The translations under genes were made by a program, and so were the position numbers. This document shows, piece by piece, positions 3,431-40,979 of a stretch of DNA of 64,000 nt (its first letter is position 1; each line of letters starts with the position of its first letter). Below the pieces are notes generated by a model. It was not told the DNA's origin. It did no database searches and saw only the letters and a program-made list of their open reading frames with translations. This DNA is from Pampinifervens diazotrophicum (GTDB lineage Bacteria > Aquificota > Aquificia > Aquificales > Aquificaceae), in NCBI RefSeq assembly GCF_033971325.1, contig NZ_CP117180.1:66041-130040 (forward strand), in the 5' to 3' direction.

Positions 3431-4166
3431 AGGTTCTCATTACCTGCATGGTTTTTTCGTAGCCAAGCTTATATAGCTCATCCGCTTTCAAAAGGCTAAG
3501 TGGCGAATAAGAGTATAGTTCAGGCTCTATTAAAACATTACATAGCTCCTTTCTTTTGTCTGCGTTAGACCTAACCGCCAAAAGGAAACTCCGCACAAGA
3601 ACTTGAAAGATATTTCCCACCTTTTCCAGTGGCGTATTTGGGTTCACATCAACACCCACGAGCAACCCTTCCATCCCAAGAAGAGGTTCAACAGGTAAGT
3701 TGTTGGTTATGCCACCATCTACGAGAAGGTAATTCTTATACCTTATAGGTTCAAATATGCCAGGTAAAGCACAGCTACCTAACAAAACTGGAAACAGGCT
3801 CCCACTTTTAAAATACAAGGTTTTACCACTCTTGAGGTCTACCGCACCGATAAAGAGCCTTTTCTTTAACCCTTCTATACTGTCTGTAGAAAGCATATTT
3901 CTAAGATACTTTTCCGCATCCCTAAGGGATATTAGCCCAAGCCTCGGCACAGTGGGTCTAAGGTATCTGAGCCAGTCCCTTGACTTTACAACCCTTAGCA
4001 TTTCTTCTGGAGTGTATCCATCGCAGTAAAAGGCACCCACCAAAGCTCCAGCACTTACACCGCTCACCGCAGATATCTCAAAGCCCAGCTCCTCAAGAGC
4101 CTTTATTACGCCTATATGTGCTATGCCACGAGATGCTCCACCAGAAAGTGCAAGGTTAACCTTCAT
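3420..4166 (-). CDS. Patatin-like phospholipase (RssA family)
   Basis: N-terminal GGASRG oxyanion motif and GVSAG (GxSxG) serine nucleophile motif. DGG near the C-terminus. Confidence 0.8.
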   Translation of the reverse strand: MKVNLALSGGASRGIAHIGVIKALEELGFEISAVSGVSAGALVGAFYCDGYTPEEMLRVVKSRDWLRYLRPTVPRLGLISLRDAEKYLRNMLSTDSIEGLKKRLFIGAVDLKSGKTLYFKSGSLFPVLLGSCALPGIFEPIRYKNYLLVDGGITNNLPVEPLLGMEGLLVGVDVNPNTPLEKVGNIFQVLVRSFLLAVRSNADKRKELCNVLIEPELYSYSPLSLLKADELYKLGYEKTMQVMRTYVP

Positions 4167-4629
4167 GTATTAAAAGGATAGTGCAAAAACAGGCAATCCC
4201 GTCTTCTCTACAAAACCCTTCTCTTGTCTTTCCCTTTATTGAAATGTTCTCCGGTGCTATTTCCAGCATCCTTGAGAGGTTTTCCTTTATGGCATTCTTG
4301 TAAGGTGCTATCTTAGGTTTGTCCGCCACAATAACACAGTCAAGGTTTATAAGGCGATAACCTTTTTGCCTCATTCTATTTATAGCCTCTTGGAGAAAAA
4401 CCTTAGAATCCGCCTTTTTCCACCTTGGGTCCTTATTGGAGAATATCTGCCCTATGTCGGGTTCACCCAATGCACCAAGTATGGCGTCAGTTATAGCGTG
4501 GAGCAAAACATCTGCGTCTGAATGTCCCTTTAGTCCAAGAGGGAAATCAATAACTACACCACCGAGCTTTAATGGTTTGCCTTCTTCAAAAGCATGTGAG
4601 TCAAAGCCAAGTCCTATTCTTATGTTCAT
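4156..4629 (-). CDS. ispF: 2-C-methyl-D-erythritol 2,4-cyclodiphosphate synthase
   Basis: MNIRIGLGFDSHAFEEGKPLKLGGV...GHSDADVLLHAITDAILGA matches the IspF signature. Confidence 0.9.
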   Translation of the reverse strand: MNIRIGLGFDSHAFEEGKPLKLGGVVIDFPLGLKGHSDADVLLHAITDAILGALGEPDIGQIFSNKDPRWKKADSKVFLQEAINRMRQKGYRLINLDCVIVADKPKIAPYKNAIKENLSRMLEIAPENISIKGKTREGFCREDGIACFCTILLIHEG

Positions 4630-5054
4630 CGGTTAAGGAACTGCATAAAGTAGAAGATAAGCCAACCCGTCACAGCCACGTATATCCAAACGAAAGCGGT
4701 TATAGGAGCAATTTTCTTGTGCCTCTCAAACAGCCCCTTAAAGGCATATCTAAGGGTTATAACCGCAAGAGGAAAGTTTACTATAGCGAGGGCGGTATGA
4801 GACCAGAGAATAAAAAGAAACAGCTCTTTGTACGGACCTTCGTACTTTCCAATGGGCACAAGCCCTTGAGCCTGAAGCATATTTCTGAGGATATAGAGGA
4901 AAACAAATATAAGGGCAAATACTGAAGCGGTTATCATAGCCTTTTTGTGAGCTTCTCTTTTGCCAGACTTTATGAGAAATATGCCAAGAACTATGGCAAC
5001 TCCACTTACAGATATGGTAAGCATACTCAAAAGAGTTATAAAAGTGGTAAGCAT
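4626..5054 (-). CDS. Small integral membrane protein, DUF420-like (4 TM)
   Basis: 142 aa with four hydrophobic helices. It resembles the DUF420 proteins found with haem-copper oxidase genes. The family assignment is from memory and is not verified. Confidence 0.45.
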   Translation of the reverse strand: MLTTFITLLSMLTISVSGVAIVLGIFLIKSGKREAHKKAMITASVFALIFVFLYILRNMLQAQGLVPIGKYEGPYKELFLFILWSHTALAIVNFPLAVITLRYAFKGLFERHKKIAPITAFVWIYVAVTGWLIFYFMQFLNR

Positions 5055-5109
5055 GGTTTCTATTATACAACTACTTGGTGCTTTCTTCAGCTTATGTTAA
5101 AATCTTAGC

Positions 5110-5859
5110 ATGTTTCATATAGAGCTAAACGGTAAGACCGCCCTTATAACTGGTTCTACTCGTGGAATAGGAAAAGCCATAGCCCAGTATCTTGCAAAGG
5201 CAGGTGCAAGGGTAATAATAACAGGGAGAGACCAAGGCAGAGCGGAAGAGGTAGCTAAGGAGATAGCACAAACTTACAGAGTAGAAACTCTTGGTGTTGC
5301 CATGGATATGTCCGAAAAGGACTCCATAACCTCTGCCTACGAAAGGATAGAGTCCCTTTTTGGTGGAGTAGACATACTCGTAAACAACGCAGGCATAACA
5401 AAGGATAAGCTCTTTTTGAGAATGTCCCTTGAGGACTGGGAAGAAGTCCTTAGAGTAAACCTTACGGGAACTTTTCTTATAACCTCCCTTGCGATAAAGG
5501 GTATGCTTAAGAAAAGATGGGGTAGGATAGTAAACATATCCTCTGTGGTAGGCTTTACCGGCAACATAGGGCAGGTAAACTACTCCTCTACAAAATCTGC
5601 ACTTATTGGGTTTACCAAAAGCCTTGCCAAGGAGCTGGCAAGCAGGAACATAACTGTCAATGCGGTAGCACCAGGCTTTATAGAAACGGACATGACTTCA
5701 GTGTTAAACGATGAGCTAAAGCAAGCCTATCTAAAGAGCATACCACTTGGCAGGTTTGGAAAGCCAGAGGATGTGGCGGGTGCGGTGGTGTTTCTGTGTT
5801 CAGACTATGCCAGCTATATTACCGGTGAAGTTCTGCACGTAAATGGTGGTATGTATTAA
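5110..5859 (+). CDS. fabG: 3-oxoacyl-[ACP] reductase (short-chain dehydrogenase/reductase)
   Basis: GKTALITGSTRGIGKAIA Rossmann motif, NNAG, and the catalytic YSSTKSA (YxxxK) motif. Confidence 0.85.
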   Translation: MFHIELNGKTALITGSTRGIGKAIAQYLAKAGARVIITGRDQGRAEEVAKEIAQTYRVETLGVAMDMSEKDSITSAYERIESLFGGVDILVNNAGITKDKLFLRMSLEDWEEVLRVNLTGTFLITSLAIKGMLKKRWGRIVNISSVVGFTGNIGQVNYSSTKSALIGFTKSLAKELASRNITVNAVAPGFIETDMTSVLNDELKQAYLKSIPLGRFGKPEDVAGAVVFLCSDYASYITGEVLHVNGGMY

Positions 5860-5868
5860 CCTTTTTTT

Positions 5869-6357
5869 ATGCCTTTATGCTATATAGCCTTTGGGAGCAA
5901 CGTAGAGGACAGGGTCAATCACATAATAAAAGCCTTGGAGCTTCTAAAGGGCTATGGCTCAATAAAAAAGGTCTCCACACTATACCTTAGCCAGCCATGG
6001 GGCAAGACAGACCAGCCAGTTTTTATAAATGGCGTCCTTGAGTTTGAAACAGAGCTTAACCCTATAAGGCTTCTTGAGGTTTTGAAAAACATAGAAAGAC
6101 AGGCTGGTAGGAAACCAAGAGAAAGGTGGGGACCAAGAGAGATAGACCTTGATATATTACTCTATGAAAACCATATTTTGATGCTTAGCTTTCTCCGTAT
6201 CCCGCACCTCTACCTTACAGAAAGAGACTTCTTCCTATTTCCACTTCTTGAGCTAAAACACGACCTTATACATCCCGTAAGCAAGGTCAAACTTCAAGAA
6301 TACGCAAGTAGGCTTGAAAACAACCTTACTCCCTTTGCCTGCCTTTTACCATTTTAA
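5869..6357 (+). CDS. folK: 2-amino-4-hydroxy-6-hydroxymethyldihydropteridine pyrophosphokinase (HPPK)
   Basis: IAFGSN...YLSQPWG...REIDLDILLYE are conserved HPPK motifs. Confidence 0.85.
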   Translation: MPLCYIAFGSNVEDRVNHIIKALELLKGYGSIKKVSTLYLSQPWGKTDQPVFINGVLEFETELNPIRLLEVLKNIERQAGRKPRERWGPREIDLDILLYENHILMLSFLRIPHLYLTERDFFLFPLLELKHDLIHPVSKVKLQEYASRLENNLTPFACLLPF

Positions 6358-7374
6358 TTCACTCCTTTTGGCATAAGTCTGAGGTTTTGCTTGGAAAAAG
6401 TCCGTCTTTGTGTCATTTATAGTCCTAAACTGGTCTATCCATTTCATAGGGTTTTCTGTAACTTCGGGATAGAGTGGCTTGTAGCCAAGTTGAGTAAGCC
6501 TAAGGTTAGAGAGATACTTTATATACCTGTCTATAAGATAGTCATTAAGACCCAGTATCTGGTTCTGGGTGACATACTTACCCCACTCTATTTCCTTCTC
6601 TGTGGCAAACTTGAAAAACTCATAGACCCACTTTTCAATCTCTGGAGTGAAAAGCTCAGGCTGTTCTTCTTTGAGGGTTAATATGATATTCCTAAAGAGG
6701 GTCACATGGGTTAGCTCGTCTCTGTTTATATACTTTATCTGCTGAACGGTGTTTCTTACCTTTCCCTGTCTTCCAAGGGTATAGAAAAAGGCAAAGCCAG
6801 AGTAAAAGTATAGGCTCTCAAGCACATAGTTGCCAAAAACCGCCTTTATAAAGTTTTCCTCATTGGGTTTTTTTATAAACTCGTTATAAAGCTCTGCGAC
6901 TACACTATTTCTCTCCATAAGAACCTTGTCCTGTCTCCAGTAGTTGTATATCTCGTCTGCAACCCTTGGGTCCACAACGCTTTCGAGGATAAACTGGTAT
7001 GAATAGCTATGCAGTGCCTCCTGAAACTCTTGAGAGGTGAGAGCCATAACGAGCTCTGGTGCGGTAATATAGCGTGCAAACTCCTTTAACATGTTTACCT
7101 GATAGGAGTCAAGAGCTATCAGAAAGGACAATACCATTTCGTAGGCTCTCCTTTCATACTCAGAGAGCTCTTTTTCATACTGCTTCCTATCCTCGTGCAT
7201 AGGAATCTCTTCTGGTATCCAGAAGTTGGTAAAGCCCATGGTCTTATAAAGGTCAAAAGCCCACTGATACTTGACGCTGTTTAGTTCCATTATGTTGGTA
7301 GGGTTTCCAAAGACCATTTTCCTTCTTGATGGTTCTCTGTCACCTTCAGGGTTGAAGATTATAGTCCTCTCCAT
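6346..7374 (-). CDS. nrdB: Class I ribonucleotide reductase small (beta/R2) subunit
   Basis: 342 aa ferritin-like di-iron protein with conserved E/H ligands, e.g. FLIALDSYQVNMLKEF...EALHSYSY. Lies immediately downstream of nrdA. Confidence 0.88.
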   Translation of the reverse strand: MERTIIFNPEGDREPSRRKMVFGNPTNIMELNSVKYQWAFDLYKTMGFTNFWIPEEIPMHEDRKQYEKELSEYERRAYEMVLSFLIALDSYQVNMLKEFARYITAPELVMALTSQEFQEALHSYSYQFILESVVDPRVADEIYNYWRQDKVLMERNSVVAELYNEFIKKPNEENFIKAVFGNYVLESLYFYSGFAFFYTLGRQGKVRNTVQQIKYINRDELTHVTLFRNIILTLKEEQPELFTPEIEKWVYEFFKFATEKEIEWGKYVTQNQILGLNDYLIDRYIKYLSNLRLTQLGYKPLYPEVTENPMKWIDQFRTINDTKTDFFQAKPQTYAKRSELKW

Positions 7375-7386
7375 TTTTTTACCTCC

Positions 7387-9678
7387 TTAGGTGGAACAGC
7401 TTTCGCACTCTTCTATATCGGTCATAGACTTGCTCCTTGTGTAATAAAGGGTTTTCAAACCCAGCTCCCATGCAAGCTCGTAAAGTTTAGAGAGCTTAGG
7501 ACCATCTATGTTCTCTGGGTCAATGAAGAGGTTAAGAGATTGTGCTTGGTCTATCCACTTCTGCCTTACCGCACCAGCTCTTATGACCCACTCCTGGTCT
7601 ATGTTGTAGGCACTTTTGTAGTGCCAGAAGTACTTATCTATCTCTGGTGGCACCTGAGGAAGTATTCCAGACATGTTCTCTTCCTTGTAATACTTGGCGA
7701 ATATGGGGTCTACCGATGGTGTTGCTCCCACGATGAGGGAGGTAGAGCCTGTGGGCATCACCGCAATAAGGTAGGCGTTTCTCATACCGTAGCTTTTGAC
7801 CTCCTGTGCAAGACCTACCCAATCAAAGCCATTCTTAGAAATCCTTGTATTTTCCTCCGCACTCCTGCCAAAGAACACTCCTTTACTCCATTCTGAGCCT
7901 TCAAAAAGCTCATACCTTCCTCTTTCCTTTGCCAACTGCATTGAACCCTTTATAGCATAATAAGCCAACCTTTCAAATAGGGTATCTGCAAACTCAAGGT
8001 GCTCCTCTGACTCCCATTGTATGCCATGCTTTACAAGACAGTAATGGTAGTTGCTTACCCCTATGCCTATTGACCTGTATCTTTTATTTGTCCATTCCGC
8101 CTCTTTTATGGCGTAGAAGTTCATACTTATCACATTATCTAACATCCTCACAAGCAGTGGCACAACCCTTTCCATGTCCTCCTTTGTGTAGACCTTGCCA
8201 AGATTAACAGACCCAAGATTACAAACTACCACATCTCCAGCCTTTTTCTTGTGAACTATAATTCCATCCTCTGTAAGCGTATCCTCTATGTGGATAGTTG
8301 TGGACATGTTTTGCACTATCTCATGGCACAGGTTAGAGCTGTATACCATACCACAATGCTTGTTGGGGTTTAGCCTATTTGCAGTATCTCTAAAGAATAT
8401 GTATGGCTCACCAGTTTCAAAAATCACCGTCAAAAGCCTTTTCCAAAGTTCAAAGGCGTCCACTTCCTTCTTTGCATGTGCTGGCAGTTCCCTTTCTAAT
8501 TTCTCGTAAAGCCTTTCAAATTCCTCTCCATAAAAGTCCTCAAGATTTTTCCCATCCTTTACATTTTTACAGTAATAGGGGTCAAGTAAGGTCCAATTTT
8601 GCCTGCTTTTAAGCCTTTTCATAAAAAGGTCTGGTATTGAAATGGCAGGATGTATATCGTGAGCCTTTTTCCTCTCATCCCCTACGTTGGTCTTCACCTC
8701 AAGGAAATCCAAAACATCCTTATGCCATATATCAAGGGTTATGGAGGCAGAGCCCTTCCTCATACCAAGCTGGTCTACATATATCATCACATCGTTTAGA
8801 ATCTTCACCACAGGAAGCACTCCAGAGCTTGCACCTTTGAACTTTCTAATAGGAGCACCCGTTGCCCTTATTTTGCCCAGGTATATACCAAGACCGCCTG
8901 CAAACTTGGATATCTGCCCCGCCTTTTGCACATTGTCAAAGATATCATAAAGGTCATCGTCTACAGTTAACACAAAGCAAGAGCTAAGCTGTGTATGTGT
9001 CCTGCGTGCATTCATAAGAGTAGGAGTTGCCAGAGATATCTCATGCTTACTCATAAGGTCATAAAAGAGCTTTGCATACTTTAGCCTTTCCTCCTTCTTC
9101 TCCGGTATAGCCAAGGTCATAGCCACAAGCATATACATTTCCTGAGGAAGCTCCACTATGTTTCCCTCCTCGTCCCTTACCAAATACCTGTCTGCGAGCA
9201 CCTTTATGCCCGTGTAGTTGAAAAGCAGGTCTCTATCAGGGTCTATATACCTTGCAAGTTGATTGAAGTCTTCTTCTGTGTATTCTCTTAGGAGATAATC
9301 TCCGTATATACCCCTATCCGCATAGGTCTTAACAAGCCTGTAAAAGCTATCTGGGTTATAGGGTTTGTATTTACCGTTTATCTTGTCCTTTACCTTATAA
9401 CCTCTGAGATGCCCCACGTCTTTGTAAAGGTCGTAAAGAAGTAGCCTTGCCGCTACATATTGCCACTGCGGTGTTTGAGGTGAAACCTTTTCTGCTGCAG
9501 TCCTTATAAGGAGCTGTTGTATCTCCTTTGTGCTTATTCCATCTCTGAACTGTATCTGTGCATCCAGTTCAAGCTCCATAGGGTCTACATCTATCTCCTT
9601 GCAAGCAAAGTCAATAACTATGCGTATCTTGGATATGTCCAAGGATTCCTTCTTTCCGCTCCTTTTGAGGACGTACAT
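7387..9678 (-). CDS. nrdA: Class I ribonucleotide reductase large (alpha) subunit; no intein
   Basis: 763 aa. N-terminal ATP-cone-like region, conserved catalytic Cys/Asn/Glu region, C-terminal CxxC tail (ECESCST). Confidence 0.9.
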
Positions 9679-23327: not shown

Positions 23328-23400
23328 GGCCCGGTAGCTCAGTTGGTAGAGCACCCGGCTGAAAACCGGGGTGTCGGCGGTTCGAATCCGCCCTGGGCCA
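23328..23400 (+). tRNA. tRNA-Phe (anticodon GAA)
   Basis: 73-nt cloverleaf by hand folding: acceptor GGCCCGG/CTGGGCC, D-arm GCTCAGTTGGTAGAGC, anticodon stem CCCGG/CCGGG with loop CTGAAAA, T-arm GGCGGTTCGAATCCGCC. The CCA tail is not encoded. Confidence 0.9.
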
Positions 23401-32469: not shown

Positions 32470-33567
32470 ATGATTGCACAAGACAGCTTAAAGGAAGCAT
32501 TACGGAAAAACAAGCTAAAAAGCGAGATCTTCGGAAATCTTGAATACTTAAGGTTTACCGACGACTTTAAGGATATCCCACGAGGCACCGCTCTTTTCAA
32601 AGACATGGTAATGTGGGGCTATCCTCATATAGGTAGGATATTTCAGCTTTCCACTGGCATTCCTGAGCAGTTTTCTGCTCCCTTTTGGGTTGAAGAGAAG
32701 GTTGATGGATACAATGTGAGAGTTTTTATGCACCAGGGAGAAATTTATGCTCTCACGAGAGGCGGATATGTTTGTGCTTTTACTACAGATAGGGTTCTTG
32801 ATTTTGTAGAGCCTGCCTTTTTTGAAGACAATCCCGACCTTGTGCTATGCATGGAAGTGGCAGGACCTGAAAACCCTTACGTGGAAGAGAGCCCTCCCTA
32901 TGTAAAGGAAGATGTGAAGTTCTTCCTTTTTGATATAATGCGGAAAAACCATCAAGGCTTTCTGCCCTACAGGGAGAAGTTGAGGCTTATTGAAAAATAC
33001 AACCTTCCCAGCGTAGAGCGGTATGGACTATACACTCCAGAGCAGATAGAGGACCTAAAGGCTCTTCTCAGGAAGCTAAATGAGGAAAGAAGGGAAGGTG
33101 TGGTTTTAAAGGAAGATTCAGAGAGGGATAAGAGAGTGAAGTATATTACAAGCTACGCCAATCTTAACGATATAAGGATAACATCTCTCAATATGCTTGG
33201 ACTTCCTGCGGACTATTACACCAACAGACTCTTACGACTTGCTCTGTTTATAGAAGAGGAAGAGTTGGAAAAAACTCAAGAACTTTTCAGAGAGCTTGGA
33301 GAAGCCTTTTTGAGTGGTCTATTTGAAGCATGCAAAATGGCAAGGGAAGAAGGCAAAGTCCGTAGGGTATTTAGGTGTAGGTTCAGAAGAAAGGACAATG
33401 CTCTTATATTCATGGAGCAGATGAAACATGCATCCGTTCACATACAGGTAAACCAGCTATCACTAAGGCAAGAAGGAGAGTTTTGGCTTTTGGAGTTTGA
33501 AAAGGTTTTCCTTAATATGACAGGGCTTCTGGGACACCTTTTAAAAGGTGGCTCTCTTATAGATTAG
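32470..33567 (+). CDS. ATP-dependent RNA ligase, Rnl3 (Pab1020/MthRnl-like) family
   Basis: Nucleotidyltransferase motif [12 protein letters not shown] (KxDG lysine), motif III FLFDI, motif IV EGVVLK. The ORF-track entry starts at 32128 but that overlaps the upstream gene. The Met at 32470 (MIAQDSL) is the likely start. Confidence 0.7.
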
Positions 33568-34145
33568 GTTCTAAGAGTGTAGCTTTCAAGTATTACTCTA
33601 AAACTCCTTGGGTCTATGAGCTTTATGCCCACTTTGTCCGCCCAGTTTCTAAGACCCTCATCACCAGAAACTAACACACCATCAAGCTCGTAAGCCAAGA
33701 GCAAAACATCAAGGTCTTCTTTACTGTCTATTATACCTGTTCTGAGAGCTTCTCTGTATTTTTCTCTTAGCTTGTTTATGAGTTTTCCCACATCTTCTTG
33801 GGTTAGCCTACCTGCTTCCTTTGTGTGCTCCTCTGCAATACGCAGACCCTTGTTTATCCTATAACGCACTTCCTCTATAAACTCGTAAAGAAACTCCGCA
33901 GGAACCATAAGGTTATATCTTCTTGGAGAGCGAATCCTCACCGTAAGCTCAAACCTTGGCTTTAGGCTTCCAAGCTCTACCATTTTGTTAAACTCTTCAT
34001 AAACAGAAGTGGGCATAAAAAACTTTGCCCTACTGTGAGATGCAAGTGTTATAAAATTTTCTATAGCACCGAGCTGGTCTTTCTCAAACTGTGAGTATAC
34101 GTCTGGATTGGTAAATACGCTTGTATCTAAAACAAAAGATTCCAT
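33564..34145 (-). CDS. RNA ligase partner protein, MJ_0950 family (PIN-like)
   Basis: 193 aa starting [11 protein letters not shown], with acidic residues consistent with a PIN-like fold. Members of this family are characteristically encoded next to Rnl3-type RNA ligases. Its 3' end overlaps the ligase 3' end by 4 nt. Confidence 0.6.
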
Positions 34146-37271: not shown

Positions 37272-37955
37272 TTACATATATTTTTCCACAAGCCACTTGA
37301 AAGTCTTGCTAAGCCTATGGTCATCCTCAAGCTCAAGAAACTCTTTAACCTTCACCTTGCTTATAAAAAGCTTTGAGTGTTCTATTGGCACCGTGCTGTC
37401 TTGCCTGCCGTGGAATACATAAATCTCATAAGGAACTTCTGAGGGAAAGTCTACATGGCTGTCTCTTAGTATTTCATAACCCTTTTTGAGTATATCTACC
37501 GCAAACTCTTTGTTTATGGTAAGTTCAAGACCAGTTTCGCACTCTGTAAAGTTCAGGTCTTCCTTACCCTCCAGCCAATTTTTGCACCTTGCCTCTCCCA
37601 CCTCCTTTACAGTAAGAGCAAGTGTTGAGTAAGAAGGGGCAAAGAGGAAAACCCTTTTGACCTTTTCTGGTTTGTAAAACTTGAGATAGTTTAGAGAGGT
37701 ATATCCACCGTGAGAACTTCCAGAGAGCCAAACTTGGGAAAACTTTTGAGAAAAGCCCTTTACAAGGGCATCCAATACCTCCAAGACCCTGCTCGTGGTA
37801 GTAGTCTGATAGTCCATATCCATAGCAAAGAGGGAAAACCTGCCTTGCAAACTCCTCTCCCTTAGAATGCTTACCTTAGTGCCTTTGATATCGCTGGCAA
37901 ATCCATGAAGGTGTATTAAAATAACCTCAGGGTTGGTAGACTCATAAATGAACAT
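37272..37955 (-). CDS. Alpha/beta hydrolase fold protein (esterase/lipase-like)
   Basis: GSSHGG nucleophile-elbow motif. HGxxD-like and His near the C-terminus. Confidence 0.6.
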   Translation of the reverse strand: MFIYESTNPEVILIHLHGFASDIKGTKVSILRERSLQGRFSLFAMDMDYQTTTTSRVLEVLDALVKGFSQKFSQVWLSGSSHGGYTSLNYLKFYKPEKVKRVFLFAPSYSTLALTVKEVGEARCKNWLEGKEDLNFTECETGLELTINKEFAVDILKKGYEILRDSHVDFPSEVPYEIYVFHGRQDSTVPIEHSKLFISKVKVKEFLELEDDHRLSKTFKWLVEKYM

Positions 37956-38520
37956 AAGAGAAATTATAGAGGATTTAGAGACCAGAAGAAAGGTCTTTCA
38001 TCTTTTTGCACTACTCCTTTGGCTTTTACCTTTGAACTATCTTCCAAGCATTATAACTCTACTGGTTTTTTCCCTTGTGATAGGGTTAAACCTGCTAACT
38101 GTCCTGGGCGTTGGCAAGGAAAGGCTGACTTTTTACTATAGGTTTGTTTACAAACTTGAAAGAGAGAAAAACTACTCAAGACCAGGAATACAGGCTCTGT
38201 GGGCAAACCTTGGAATATTTTCTGTATTTCTACTCTTTGGAAAAGAGCCTGCTATGGTATCTGTGGTAGTGCTTGCAGTAGGAGACGCCTTTGCCAGCGT
38301 GGTAGGAATGAGATACGGTAGAACAAGGATGGGAAGTAAAAGCCTTGAGGGAAGTATAGCCTTTTTCCTTTCAACCTTTCTGGTCCTTTTGCCCTTCTTA
38401 GGTTTGTGGAAGGCTTTTTTGATATGTATATTTTCTGCAATTGTTGAGGCTTTACCAATTAGTGTGGATGACAACTTTAGCGTGCCACTCGTAGCTGGTG
38501 TTTTATACTATATGTTATGA
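37948..38520 (+). CDS. Membrane protein of the CTP-dependent polyprenol (dolichol/phytol) kinase / CdsA-like cytidylyltransferase superfamily
   Basis: 190 aa, 5-6 TM helices, with the motif VLAVGDAFASVVGMRYGRTRMGSKSLEGSIAFF typical of this superfamily. Confidence 0.55.
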   Translation: MNIREIIEDLETRRKVFHLFALLLWLLPLNYLPSIITLLVFSLVIGLNLLTVLGVGKERLTFYYRFVYKLEREKNYSRPGIQALWANLGIFSVFLLFGKEPAMVSVVVLAVGDAFASVVGMRYGRTRMGSKSLEGSIAFFLSTFLVLLPFLGLWKAFLICIFSAIVEALPISVDDNFSVPLVAGVLYYML

Positions 38521-39701
38521 AGATAAAAGTAGAAAACTTAGCAAGAATAAGGTCTGCAGAAATAGAAATAAAGCCTCTAACTGTATTTCTTGGAAAAAAT
38601 AACACTAATAAGAGTTATCTATCTTATGTGGTTTATGGTGTTTATAGATATATGGCGGAAGTATTGATGGAGTTTTTAAAAGGACAAGATGCGAGAAAAT
38701 TGGATAAGATAGGTGTCAAGCATCCAGATTTAGTTAGAATACTACAAGAAAGGATAGAGAAAATGTTTAGAAGTGAAAGTTTTAGCTCATTTAAACTTGA
38801 CATAGAATTTTCAGAGGAAGAAAGTGAGATGATAAACAAGATTATAGATAATATGTTAGTCATAAGAAAACAGGAGGGAAATGATAAATCTTTATCTATG
38901 ACTTTAATTAGGAACTTTTTAGAGTTAATAAACACTTGGGTAGATGTTTTTTATTTTCCTGCAAGTAGAACTGGATTTGTCTTGGCTTTGGATGCTCTTG
39001 TAATAGGTGTTCTCAGAGAAAGGTATGAAGGGAAGTATTATGAAAAACTAACTGAGCCAGTAGTGGACTTTATCGCTGATTTTTATAGAATAAAGTCTCA
39101 ATCTGAAGACCTTAGAGGCTTGAGTAGGGAAAAGGAATTACTCAGAAAATTAAGTGATATGATAGATGGAGAAATATGGATAGATAAAAACACAAAACAA
39201 CTACTATGCCACCCAAAAGGCATTAGGGGACAGAAAAAGATAGAAATGCATCTCGTTTCTTCTTCTATTGCGGAGTTAGCTCCGATATATGTTTTCCTTG
39301 CAAACATTGAAAAACTTGAAAACCACATTTTTATAATAGAAGAGCCTGAAGCACACTTGCATGTGGAGAATCAAATCAAGATAACAGAACTAATAGTTAG
39401 CATGGTAAATTCTGGTGCTAAGGTGCTTATAACTACTCACAGTGATTATATAATCAACGCTTTAAATATATGCTTGGGAAGATATTGGGTAGGAGACTAT
39501 GAGAAAGAAAGTTTAGACCCTAATAAAATTGCGGTATATCTTTTTAAGGAAGAGGGTAGACATATAAAGGTTTTACCCATACCTATAGAAGAGCATGAAG
39601 GAATATCCTTTGAAAACTTCTATACTGCAACAGATAGACTTATGGAAGAGGAAGAAAGAATAAGAGATTTATTGAAAAGCAAAGTAAAGGCAAATGTGTA
39701 A
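38517..39701 (+). CDS. AAA_15/AAA_21-type ABC ATPase with atypical Walker A; predicted defence-system ATPase
   Basis: N-terminal IKVENLARIRSAEIEIKPLTVFLGKNNTNKS (P-loop GKNNTNKS instead of GPNGSGKS). Q-loop-like YFPASRTG. Signature-like HLVSSSIAELAPIYVFL. Walker B/D-loop HIFIIEEPEAHLH. H-loop VLITTHS. About 30% GC. Confidence 0.7.
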   Translation: MKIKVENLARIRSAEIEIKPLTVFLGKNNTNKSYLSYVVYGVYRYMAEVLMEFLKGQDARKLDKIGVKHPDLVRILQERIEKMFRSESFSSFKLDIEFSEEESEMINKIIDNMLVIRKQEGNDKSLSMTLIRNFLELINTWVDVFYFPASRTGFVLALDALVIGVLRERYEGKYYEKLTEPVVDFIADFYRIKSQSEDLRGLSREKELLRKLSDMIDGEIWIDKNTKQLLCHPKGIRGQKKIEMHLVSSSIAELAPIYVFLANIEKLENHIFIIEEPEAHLHVENQIKITELIVSMVNSGAKVLITTHSDYIINALNICLGRYWVGDYEKESLDPNKIAVYLFKEEGRHIKVLPIPIEEHEGISFENFYTATDRLMEEEERIRDLLKSKVKANV

Positions 39702-40107
39702 GAAACTTTTACCTTGCAATAAGCAAAGTGGACAAGATTGTAAAGAATGCTACAAATACTGGAAAAAAGTTCTTTCGCCCGAAGCCTCTTTCCAACCAAT
39801 TAAGGGAAAACTTTGTGATTGTATCATTCAATGTGATGGTTCTTATATAATTGTAGAGATCAAAAACTGCAAAGTTACCTCTGGAGAAGCTAAGGATGTT
39901 ATAGAGCAGTTAAAGAATTGTGAAGACGGACTTAGAGGGAAATGTGGTGCAAACTCACAATATAGTAAGGTTTTATTGTATGAAAAGTTTGATATACCTC
40001 CAGCTAAGAGTGAGCAAATTAAAAGTCTACTAAAAAAGGAACGCATAGAATACTACTCTATCAAGAACCTTAAAGGGAAGAAGATATGTCAATACAAAAA
40101 AGCGTAA
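39694..40107 (+). CDS. 137-aa Cys-rich protein with a PD-(D/E)xK-like motif; candidate effector partner of the ATPase
   Basis: Start ATG overlaps the ATPase stop by 8 nt (atgtgtaa). N-terminal C-x7-C-x2-C. Core LCDCIIQCDGSYIIVEIKNCK has D-x12-E-x-K spacing compatible with a minimal restriction-endonuclease-like fold. Low GC. Confidence 0.45.
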   Translation: MCKKLLPCNKQSGQDCKECYKYWKKVLSPEASFQPIKGKLCDCIIQCDGSYIIVEIKNCKVTSGEAKDVIEQLKNCEDGLRGKCGANSQYSKVLLYEKFDIPPAKSEQIKSLLKKERIEYYSIKNLKGKKICQYKKA

Positions 40108-40979
40108 AGCTCTCACCTTTTACCACCATAAAAGTTGGTGGTATTGCAAAATATTTTAGCCAACCTACGGATGAAGAAGAGCTAAAGCGTGTGATATTCT
40201 TTGTACAGGATAAGAGTCTTGAGGTTTTTCCTCTTGGTAGAGGAGCAAACACTATTTTTGGAGACTTTGAGGGTTTAGTCTTGAGCACTGTTAATTTTAG
40301 AGGAATTGAGGTAGAGAAAAAGGAGCAATACTTTTTAATAAGGGCTAAAGCTGGCACGCCTTTGTCTGAGCTTGTTAAATTTTCCCTTGAAGAGAACCTT
40401 GAAGGTTTTTATAGGCTTGGGGGCTTTCCAGCTACAGTGGGCGGTGCGGTTGCCATGAACGCTGGAGCTTTTGGATACGAAATAAGCCAGCATCTTGTGG
40501 AGGTGGTCTTTATAGATTGGGAGGGAAGGCTTCAGATTGCAAAGAAGGAAGACCTGCACTTTTCTTATAGAAAATCTCCCTTTCCTGAGCTTGGAATAGT
40601 GCTTATGGCTACCTTTGAAGTGCCAACTGCTAAGCACAAAGTAGAGGAGGAGTTTGAGAGAATAAGGAAGAAAAGAAAACAGACCCAGCCTATAAACATG
40701 CCAACGAGTGGCTCTACCTTTAAGAACCCTCAAGGCGAATATGCGGGAAGGCTCTTAGAGAAGGTAGGAATGAGGGGCTATAGAATGGGCAATATTGCCT
40801 TTTCTGAATTGCATGCTAACTTTCTGGTGAACTTAGGTGGTGGCACTTACCAGGAAGTTGTTAGAATAGTACAAGAGGCAAAGAGAAGGGTGTTTGAGAA
40901 TTTTGGTATAGTCTTGGAAGAGGAGGTAAAGCTCGTTGAGGGTTGTAGTGCTTATGGGCGGAAGGTCTGCGGAGCGTGA
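40086..40979 (+). CDS. murB: UDP-N-acetylenolpyruvoylglucosamine reductase
   Basis: FAD-binding N-terminal region (TIKVGG...GRGANT) and MurB C-terminal domain. Heads the murB-ddl-ftsQAZ cluster. Confidence 0.85.
   Translation: MSIQKSVKLSPFTTIKVGGIAKYFSQPTDEEELKRVIFFVQDKSLEVFPLGRGANTIFGDFEGLVLSTVNFRGIEVEKKEQYFLIRAKAGTPLSELVKFSLEENLEGFYRLGGFPATVGGAVAMNAGAFGYEISQHLVEVVFIDWEGRLQIAKKEDLHFSYRKSPFPELGIVLMATFEVPTAKHKVEEEFERIRKKRKQTQPINMPTSGSTFKNPQGEYAGRLLEKVGMRGYRMGNIAFSELHANFLVNLGGGTYQEVVRIVQEAKRRVFENFGIVLEEEVKLVEGCSAYGRKVCGA

Follow-up and report, generated by a model that had tools for sequence, protein, structure and literature searches.

An overlapping ATPase and small cysteine-rich protein gene pair next to murB in Pampinifervens diazotrophicum: a probable divergent member of the PD-T4-4/PDC-M47/WonAB kind of anti-phage module

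The DNA analysed here, which we refer to as the window, is a stretch of 64,000 nucleotides from the bacterium Pampinifervens diazotrophicum (contig NZ_CP117180.1, positions 66,041 to 130,040). Within it, between window positions 38517 and 40107, lies a cassette of two overlapping genes, the first encoding an ATP-binding cassette (ABC)-type ATPase and the second a small protein rich in cysteine:

38517..39701, + strand: gene for an ABC-type (AAA_15/AAA_21) ATPase of 394 aa, related to PD-T4-4_A and PDC-M47A, the presumed sensor and regulator subunit
39694..40107, + strand: gene for a small Cys-rich PD-(D/E)xK (restriction-endonuclease-fold) protein of 137 aa with 11 Cys, the presumed nuclease effector

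The ATPase start has 4 nt (ATGA) in common with the stop of the preceding gene, which encodes a kinase-like membrane protein. The small-protein gene starts 8 nt ahead of the ATPase stop (atgtgtaa), and murB starts at 40086, inside the 3' end of the small-protein gene, with which it shares a 22-nt overlap (40086-40107). From the kinase-like gene through the ATPase and nuclease genes to murB, each open reading frame (ORF) thus overlaps the next. In close relatives the small protein is 132 aa long, and so ends 5 residues earlier than the 137-aa protein of the window. Scans for promoters and terminators around the cassette gave no signal above chance.

The guanine-plus-cytosine (GC) content is 0.33 in the cassette, whereas the kinase-like gene has 0.40, murB 0.43 and the window as a whole 0.427, which bears out the AT-richness noted in the initial annotation. 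That annotation's coordinates, ORF lengths, overlaps and quoted motifs (FLGKNNTNKS, YFPASRTG, LVSSSIAEL, IFIIEEPEAHLH, TTHSD and LCDCIIQCDGSYIIVEIK) were likewise all found in the DNA where it had placed them. Judged from their sequences, the ATPase and small-protein ORFs are real genes rather than chance ORFs; the ATPase has 746 homologues, and homologues of the small protein at 26-77% identity retain the same motifs.

Pfam placed the ATPase in AAA_15 (PF13175; 77 bits against a gathering cut-off of 32.1, E 2.9e-21) and in AAA_21 (PF13304; 38.2 bits against a gathering cut-off of 27). The ABC motif set is present in the right order, with IIEE rather than hhhDE at Walker B and Arg151 at the Q-loop position:

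38592..38615, + strand: deviant Walker A (P-loop), G26-K-N-N-T-N-K32-S33, with Asn in place of the second glycine, within FLGKNNTNKS (residues 24-33)
38952..38975, + strand: YFPASRTG loop (residues 146-153), whose Arg151 occupies the Q-loop position; the family, E. coli PD-T4-4_A included, keeps R151-T-G without exception
39252..39278, + strand: ABC signature-like LVSSSIAEL (residues 246-254); S248, S249 and E253 are invariant in a 25-sequence alignment
39327..39362, + strand: Walker B and D-loop, IFIIEEPEAHLH (residues 271-282), with E276 as the presumed catalytic Glu
39432..39446, + strand: H-loop TTHSD (residues 306-310), invariant in relatives and in the alignment with bona fide PD-T4-4_A and PDC-M47A

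The run I274-E-E-P-E-x-H-L-H is also invariant in the 25-sequence alignment and matches the (I/V)DEPE of PD-T4-4_A; since the search pattern was IEEPEAHL, the count of loci with EEPE at Walker B is biased and was not used as evidence.

Among the PADLOC models the best match to the ATPase, at the top of 86 matching families, was PD-T4-4_A (PDLC04033, E 1.1e-47), with PDC-M47A (4.6e-36) in second place; another PD-T4-4_A model, NsnB and AriA (1.3e-23) came next, and matches to GajA (~1e-10), Old (4.5e-9) and PtuA-type models were weaker. The match to PDLC04033 is split into two stretches, the best of which covers profile positions 241-451 of 460, and its score compares with 1e-109 to 1e-262 over the full model length for true PD-T4-4_A members. 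Housekeeping ABC models of NCBIfam reached an E of about 1e-3 (best 6e-4), leaving the defence models far ahead when checked against the housekeeping alternative that the initial annotation had raised for the ATPase.

The only PDB sequences matched by a profile of 25 ATPase relatives were those of a class-2 OLD protein and of retron PtuA. In the AlphaFold2 (AF2) model of the ATPase (predicted local distance difference test, pLDDT, 85) the nearest PDB folds were retron and Septu PtuA, retron Eco8, and Rad50 and SMC heads. The PtuA-like predicted fold and the profile matches together uphold the earlier placement of the ATPase in the AAA_15/AAA_21 class of anti-phage systems. With the bona fide references, which were PD-T4-4_A from E. 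coli pSCU-105-5 and from an E. marmotae IncX4 plasmid and PDC-M47A from an Annamia plasmid, the ATPase shares 25-28% identity, and every motif aligned.

Within Walker A, residues G26, N28, T30 and K32 are invariant in the 25 relatives and position 31 is N, H or Q in the clade, whereas the bona fide PD-T4-4_A and PDC-M47A, like 67 relatives at a greater distance, have the canonical G there (GK[ST]). The form GxNxT[N/H/Q]KS, without the second glycine, occurs in the window and at loci L001-L013, only in ATPases partnered by the Cys-rich subfamily of small proteins, plus L050 (Persephonella). With its 394 aa, the window ATPase also falls well below the median length of 90 relatives, which is 483 aa.

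The small protein carries two groups of motif residues:

39715..39750, + strand: N-terminal Cys knuckle C8-x7-C16-x2-C19, a candidate metal-binding element
39811..39864, + strand: putative catalytic core LCDCIIQCDGSYIIVEIK (residues 40-57), D42-x12-E55-x-K57, flanked by C41, C43 and C47

In an alignment of its subfamily C16, C41, D42, E55 and C76 are invariant, C19 (>=90%), C43 and Q72 are nearly so, and C8, C47 and C132 are common, so that the cysteines conserved in the subfamily number 8 (C8, C16, C19, C41, C43, C47, C76 and C132). A wider profile of 70 partner proteins of related ATPases retains D42 in 69/70, E55 in 70/70 and K57 in 59/70, along with D/E30 in 61/64; position 72 is Q in 43 and K in 23, and C16 and C41 are kept in 55 and 49, respectively.

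An AF2 model of the small protein (pLDDT 88, predicted template modelling score 0.84), built from a 15-row alignment with the locus-derived rows left out, has the topology alpha-alpha-beta-beta-alpha-beta-alpha-beta, in which the first strand begins with D42 and E55-x-K57 lies in the second. As modelled, this is a PD-(D/E)xK fold with a predicted site of conserved E/D30, D42, E55-x-K57 and Q72, in agreement with the initial annotation, which had taken the protein to be restriction-endonuclease-like with a D-x12-E-x-K core. Either K57 or K60 may be the catalytic lysine.

Neither Pfam nor NCBIfam matched the small protein, a PDB sequence search with its profile returned nothing meaningful, and it has no sequence match to the 'iron staple' Fe-S (iron-sulfur) nucleases Cas4 and AddB. 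PDC-M29B was the sole matching PADLOC model (E 1e-3; 5e-5 for a sister sequence in the subfamily). A word-based search recovered the protein itself and one relative at 77% identity only, and of 1.84 billion representatives scanned exhaustively with HMMER, 13 cluster representatives reached E <= 1e-3, so that in terms of sequence the subfamily is rare. Its 11 cysteines in 137 residues compare with a median of 6 among partner proteins and 1 in E. marmotae PD-T4-4_B, and the 8 conserved cysteines may bind Zn or an Fe-S cluster.

In L093 (5747-6127) and L094, relatives whose kinase-like protein is 92% identical, the small protein is cut short at 126 aa with an altered C-terminus (...KKGTHRILLYQEP), and the conserved Cys at that end is missing. 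A frameshift or incipient decay of the effector may be the reason; the ATPase is still 97% identical.

The association of the two proteins was examined in both directions. Each of the close ATPase homologues examined has an overlapping downstream gene for a protein of 132-163 aa from the same Cys-rich family. We then scanned genomes with the ATPase alignment, took the best 80 loci, which come from very diverse bacteria and archaea and do not include the source species itself, and analysed the ORFs of all of them in six frames. For 86/91 ATPase ORFs an ORF on the same strand begins -150 to +200 nt from the stop, mostly encoding 130-210 aa, and a hidden Markov model (HMM) of the small-protein subfamily matched 38 of 4,888 ORFs, every one of which (38/38) lies directly downstream of an ATPase. 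Iterative searching gathered 70/84 non-redundant partners into one profile. In the reverse direction, the independently found small-protein representatives P0131 and P0133 each have an AAA_15/AAA_21 ATPase gene immediately before them. Translational coupling thus goes along with co-occurrence seen from either gene, and the survey of gene neighbourhoods that the initial annotation had proposed found the two together almost without exception.

Poribacteria contributed 14/80 of the best genome loci, all metagenome-assembled genomes (MAGs) and some with several copies; one of them, L076 (Candidatus Poribacteria MAG), carries tandem ATPase-plus-partner modules at 3805-5758 and 5962-7921. This suggests that the family has expanded in these sponge symbionts.

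When the partners of related ATPases were compared with PADLOC models, 18 matched PDC-M47B, 7 PD-T4-4_B and 7 PDC-M29B. A profile of the Cys-rich subfamily aligned by hhalign with one of 35 distant partners at a probability of 97.6% (E 4.7e-12), with KxCD, ExK and QL in register, and an HMM of the distant partners in turn gave E-values, each for a single comparison, of 6.5e-15 with a bona fide PDC-M47B and of 6e-8 and 6e-7 with two PD-T4-4_B proteins, the identities of all three having been verified. Homology within a wider family of ABC ATPases with small restriction endonuclease (REase) partners is well supported by these profile comparisons. By the PADLOC models the A component and the A-B adjacency, strand and order of PD-T4-4 are all present at the locus; strict membership fails because the B component matches no PD-T4-4_B model. 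The window version, with its Walker A form GxNxT[N/H/Q]KS, its 394-aa ATPase and its 8 conserved nuclease cysteines, belongs to a compact subfamily of thermophilic and vent-associated bacteria.

The genes that enclose the cassette are of housekeeping type:

37948..38520, + strand: gene for a SEC59/DGK1/VTE5-type polyprenol/diacylglycerol kinase-like membrane protein, 100% identical to an NCBI-named Hydrogenobacter sp. T-2 protein
40086..40979, + strand: murB, which opens the murB-ddl-ftsQ-ftsA-ftsZ block; Pfam FAD_binding_4/MurB_C are found on the orthologue in L089/L093

The 5' neighbourhood of the kinase-like gene comprises PIN_5, aroE, NifU, DUF1858, TusA, ThiI, NifU_N and hydrolase genes, and murB, ddl, ftsQ, ftsA and ftsZ follow the cassette on its 3' side. 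The PIN_5-type gene is a 193-aa ORF at 33564-34145 on the - strand, ~4.4 kb 5' of the cassette, named for the Pfam PIN_5 domain of its orthologue in relatives; it is kept in relatives with or without the cassette. Elsewhere in the 64-kb window the sole Rfam match at the gathering threshold is one tRNA gene (23328-23400, + strand), and further low-GC stretches at ~16-18 kb and 45-46 kb hold ORFs of envelope type and a large ORF whose N-terminus resembles a signal peptide.

Comparison of this region among relatives revealed both occupied and empty sites. The cassette is present in a relative whose kinase-like protein is 92% identical to that of the window (ATPase 97% identical). A further relative, at 71%, carries it at the same site, with identities of 55% for the ATPase and 49% for the nuclease. 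It is absent from two relatives of the same synteny, at 82% and 72%; in the former the kinase-like gene abuts murB and in the latter it overlaps murB. The cassette is therefore dispensable. Junction alignments of cassette-present and cassette-absent sequences gave a clean indel, with no target-site duplication and no repeats. The shared insertion site is compatible both with ancestral presence followed by losses and with repeated insertion at the same site. In the MAG L089, whose ATPase is 99% identical, ddl is followed from 3501 onward by DUF420, YgbB, patatin and MatE genes and not by ftsQ-ftsA-ftsZ as in the window (41808 onward); even very close relatives therefore differ by a rearrangement of the region 3' of ddl.

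In 4/5 hosts compared the cassette is richer in AT than its flanks, with cassette and host GC of 0.37 vs 0.58 in L003, 0.30 vs 0.56 in L007 and 0.41 vs 0.49-0.52 in L002. In L003 (3232-4984) and L007 (502-2296) the anomaly is much stronger than in the window, which points to recent transfer from low-GC donors. Members of the family were also found in 36 plasmid records, which include very small Col-type plasmids (4.3-7.9 kb in Klebsiella, 4.8 kb in E. coli) and a conjugative IncX4 plasmid, and at 13 loci on viral contigs, all with the partner gene. The presence/absence pattern, the GC anomalies, the plasmids and the viral contigs together indicate that the module is accessory and horizontally mobile. 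Such a module fits a role in defence and argues against an essential role in division or repair.

Two characterized systems provide a framework for interpreting the pair. PD-T4-4 was recovered in E. coli by functional anti-phage selection (Vassallo et al. 2022; PMC9519451) and is catalogued as AAA_15 plus a PD-(D/E)xK nuclease (PMC10952713); EcPD-T4-4, when purified, assembles into higher-order complexes, but no DNA tested with it in vitro was cut (bioRxiv 10.1101/2025.07.10.664194). WonAB, from the V. cholerae WASA-1 prophage, consists of an OLD-type ABC ATPase and a 16-kDa PD-(D/E)xK variant (PMC12137116). Its defence is abortive and requires the ATPase motifs and the nuclease Lys, it is abolished by WonA R182A, and the system inhibits translation with the chromosomal DNA left intact (PMC12137116). 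Overproduction of WonB is toxic; simple sequestration is excluded for WonAB because WonB is non-toxic without active WonA (PMC12137116). Its authors tie WonAB to PD-T4-4 (PMC12137116) and also relate it to the 'OLD-ABC ATPase + novel REase' operon of the ABC-ATPase survey of Krishnan et al. 2020 (PMC12137116).

We conclude that the cassette is probably an accessory anti-phage module of two genes that was acquired horizontally and belongs to the PD-T4-4/PDC-M47/WonAB type. In terms of novelty it is best read as an unannotated, divergent member of a described kind of system and not as a new kind. The initial annotation had called it a candidate undescribed defence module and knew of no described system with this pairing. 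'Undescribed' overstates the novelty because both components are homologous to those of PD-T4-4/PDC-M47/WonAB-type systems; the architecture is in fact shared by the PADLOC candidates PDC-M47 and PDC-M29 and by the published systems PD-T4-4 (PMC9519451, PMC10952713) and WonAB (PMC12137116).

The function that we regard as most likely, by analogy, is that of an ATPase-gated nuclease in abortive anti-phage defence. From what is described for WonAB, PD-T4-4 and ABC ATPases generally, the ATPase would dimerise around ATP and bind the small nuclease, which it would hold in an inactive or unstable state as long as no cue from a phage is perceived. Binding or hydrolysis of ATP would then license the nuclease to cut nucleic acid, possibly RNA, tRNA or rRNA rather than bulk DNA, and cleavage would halt translation and so abort the infection.

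A number of observations weigh against this assignment to PD-T4-4/PDC-M47/WonAB-type defence. The setting is atypical for a defence module, inside a housekeeping operon with the genes on both sides overlapped, and no integrase, repeats or neighbouring defence genes were found at the cassette locus. Neither the small protein of the window nor those of its five closest relatives matched PD-T4-4_B among the PADLOC models at E<=1, and the link of the subfamily to the PD-T4-4_B and PDC-M47B models is transitive, since the small protein reaches neither directly. When the subfamily was aligned directly by hhalign with a single E. marmotae PD-T4-4_B the probability was 2.7% (E 0.017), and with a single bona fide PDC-M47B it was 38% (E 3e-4). 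About half of the members of the close subfamily have another residue in place of K57, with G-K/R60 retained. Foldseek found no significant PDB match to the small protein (best E 0.015), the weak matches all being PD-(D/E)xK nucleases. The loss of the Walker A glycine means that normal ATPase activity is not guaranteed. The likeness to WonA (AWB73975.1) and WonB (AWB73976.1) was drawn from the PD-T4-4 link, residue spacing and published descriptions, and the tie to the 'novel REase' of 2020 from the WonAB paper.

The thermophile and vent clade could also be a mechanistically distinct variant, with a nuclease built on a Cys-ligated metal centre, an ATPase with an altered P-loop, and the pair hard-wired into the murB-ddl-ftsQAZ transcript. 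One or two Zn or Fe-S centres could then flank the catalytic Asp in C41-D42-C43, the ATPase might bind rather than hydrolyse nucleotide, and expression, perhaps also the trigger, would be coupled to cell-wall synthesis and division. We consider this reading unlikely. A truly new defence system, in which an AAA_15 ATPase had been joined independently to an unrelated Cys-rich minimal nuclease, is highly unlikely and already largely refuted. It would account for a small protein that matches PDC-M29B only (E 1e-3) and no PD-T4-4_B or PDC-M47B model directly, for a rare family (13 cluster representatives) on which Pfam and NCBIfam are silent, and for a Cys knuckle and Walker A deviation specific to the clade. 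It does not fit an ATPase that scores highest with PD-T4-4_A (1e-47), an unbroken series of positional orthologues that all keep the KxCD...ExK...QL core, or the 97.6% profile-profile link to a wider partner family that itself matches bona fide PDC-M47B and PD-T4-4_B; the gene order and coupling are moreover identical, and the pairing is already published (PMC10952713, PMC12137116).

The cassette could also be selfish, a toxin-antitoxin (TA) or addiction unit with the nuclease as toxin and the ATPase as antitoxin, maintained by post-segregational killing with no defence benefit. Such a unit should be hard to lose, yet relatives show clean loss; PD-T4-4 and WonAB yield measurable phage defence, and WonB is not toxic without active WonA, which excludes simple sequestration for WonAB (PMC12137116). 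We therefore hold this reading to be quite unlikely, even though Pfam labels AAA_21 a 'putative AbiEii toxin, Type IV TA system', overproduced WonB is toxic (PMC12137116), and relatives reside on the very small Klebsiella and E. coli plasmids listed above. Least probable of all, in our judgement, is a domesticated housekeeping module, a SMC/RecF/Rad50-like ATPase with a nuclease that is co-expressed with murB-ddl-ftsQAZ and serves division-linked DNA repair or chromosome processing. The overlapped flanking genes, promoter and terminator scans that stayed at chance level for the cassette, its occurrence at one and the same site in two lineages with no more than 71% and 51% identity in the flanking proteins, junctions free of mobile-element genes and repeats, and the Rad50 and SMC heads among the fold matches are what one would expect of it. 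Against it, the cassette is absent and thus dispensable in the same-synteny relatives (kinase-like protein 82% and 72%), its GC is strongly deviant in several hosts, its homologues elsewhere lie in unrelated contexts and on plasmids and viral contigs, and defence models score far better than housekeeping ABC models.

Read as a PD-T4-4/WonAB-type module, the cassette extends this ATPase-nuclease family into the Aquificota and hydrothermal-vent bacteria. The B-component HMMs of PADLOC miss the whole Cys-rich subfamily, and such systems are therefore probably under-counted. The thermophilic pair, at 394 + 137 aa, is among the most compact versions found here and a potential target for structural and biochemical work, and its clean presence or absence inside a cell-division operon indicates that defence genes can sit outside defence islands.

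Among known systems, Septu (PtuAB), retron-associated PtuA, PARIS (AriAB) and OLD/Gabija share with the cassette the AAA_15/AAA_21 ABC-ATPase class and the logic of an ATPase sensor with a nuclease effector; the nucleases of Septu, PARIS and OLD/Gabija, however, are HNH (PtuB) or TOPRIM (AriB, OLD, GajA) and not PD-(D/E)xK. The PADLOC candidates PDC-M47 and PDC-M29 are, like the cassette, pairs of an ATPase (A) and a small partner (B). The true-member pair of the Annamia plasmid scores 1.5e-231 for PDC-M47A and 2.8e-61 for PDC-M47B, and the window scores far lower; our literature search found no publication mentioning PDC-M29.

WonAB is alike in combining an OLD-type ABC ATPase with a PD-(D/E)xK variant of about 16 kDa, but is prophage-borne, whereas the window cassette lies in a chromosomal housekeeping operon of a thermophile. 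The residues K34, R182, E300 and H333 that are essential in WonA have apparent counterparts in K32, R151, E276 and H308 of the window ATPase, as placed by residue spacing and not by alignment. PD-T4-4 differs in several respects. The window ATPase is 25% identical to its ATPase, about 70-90 aa shorter and covers the model in part, with Asn for Gly in Walker A and Glu for Asp in Walker B, and the small protein has 137 aa and 11 Cys compared with 198-209 aa and 1 Cys in E. marmotae PD-T4-4_B. The two systems nevertheless agree in gene order, with the gene for an AAA_15 ABC ATPase first and that for a small PD-(D/E)xK protein closely coupled behind it, in the ATPase motifs GxNN..K[ST]Y, RTG, SS[SA], [DE]EPE.[HN]LH and TTHSDY, and in the nuclease core KxCD...[ED]xK...QL.

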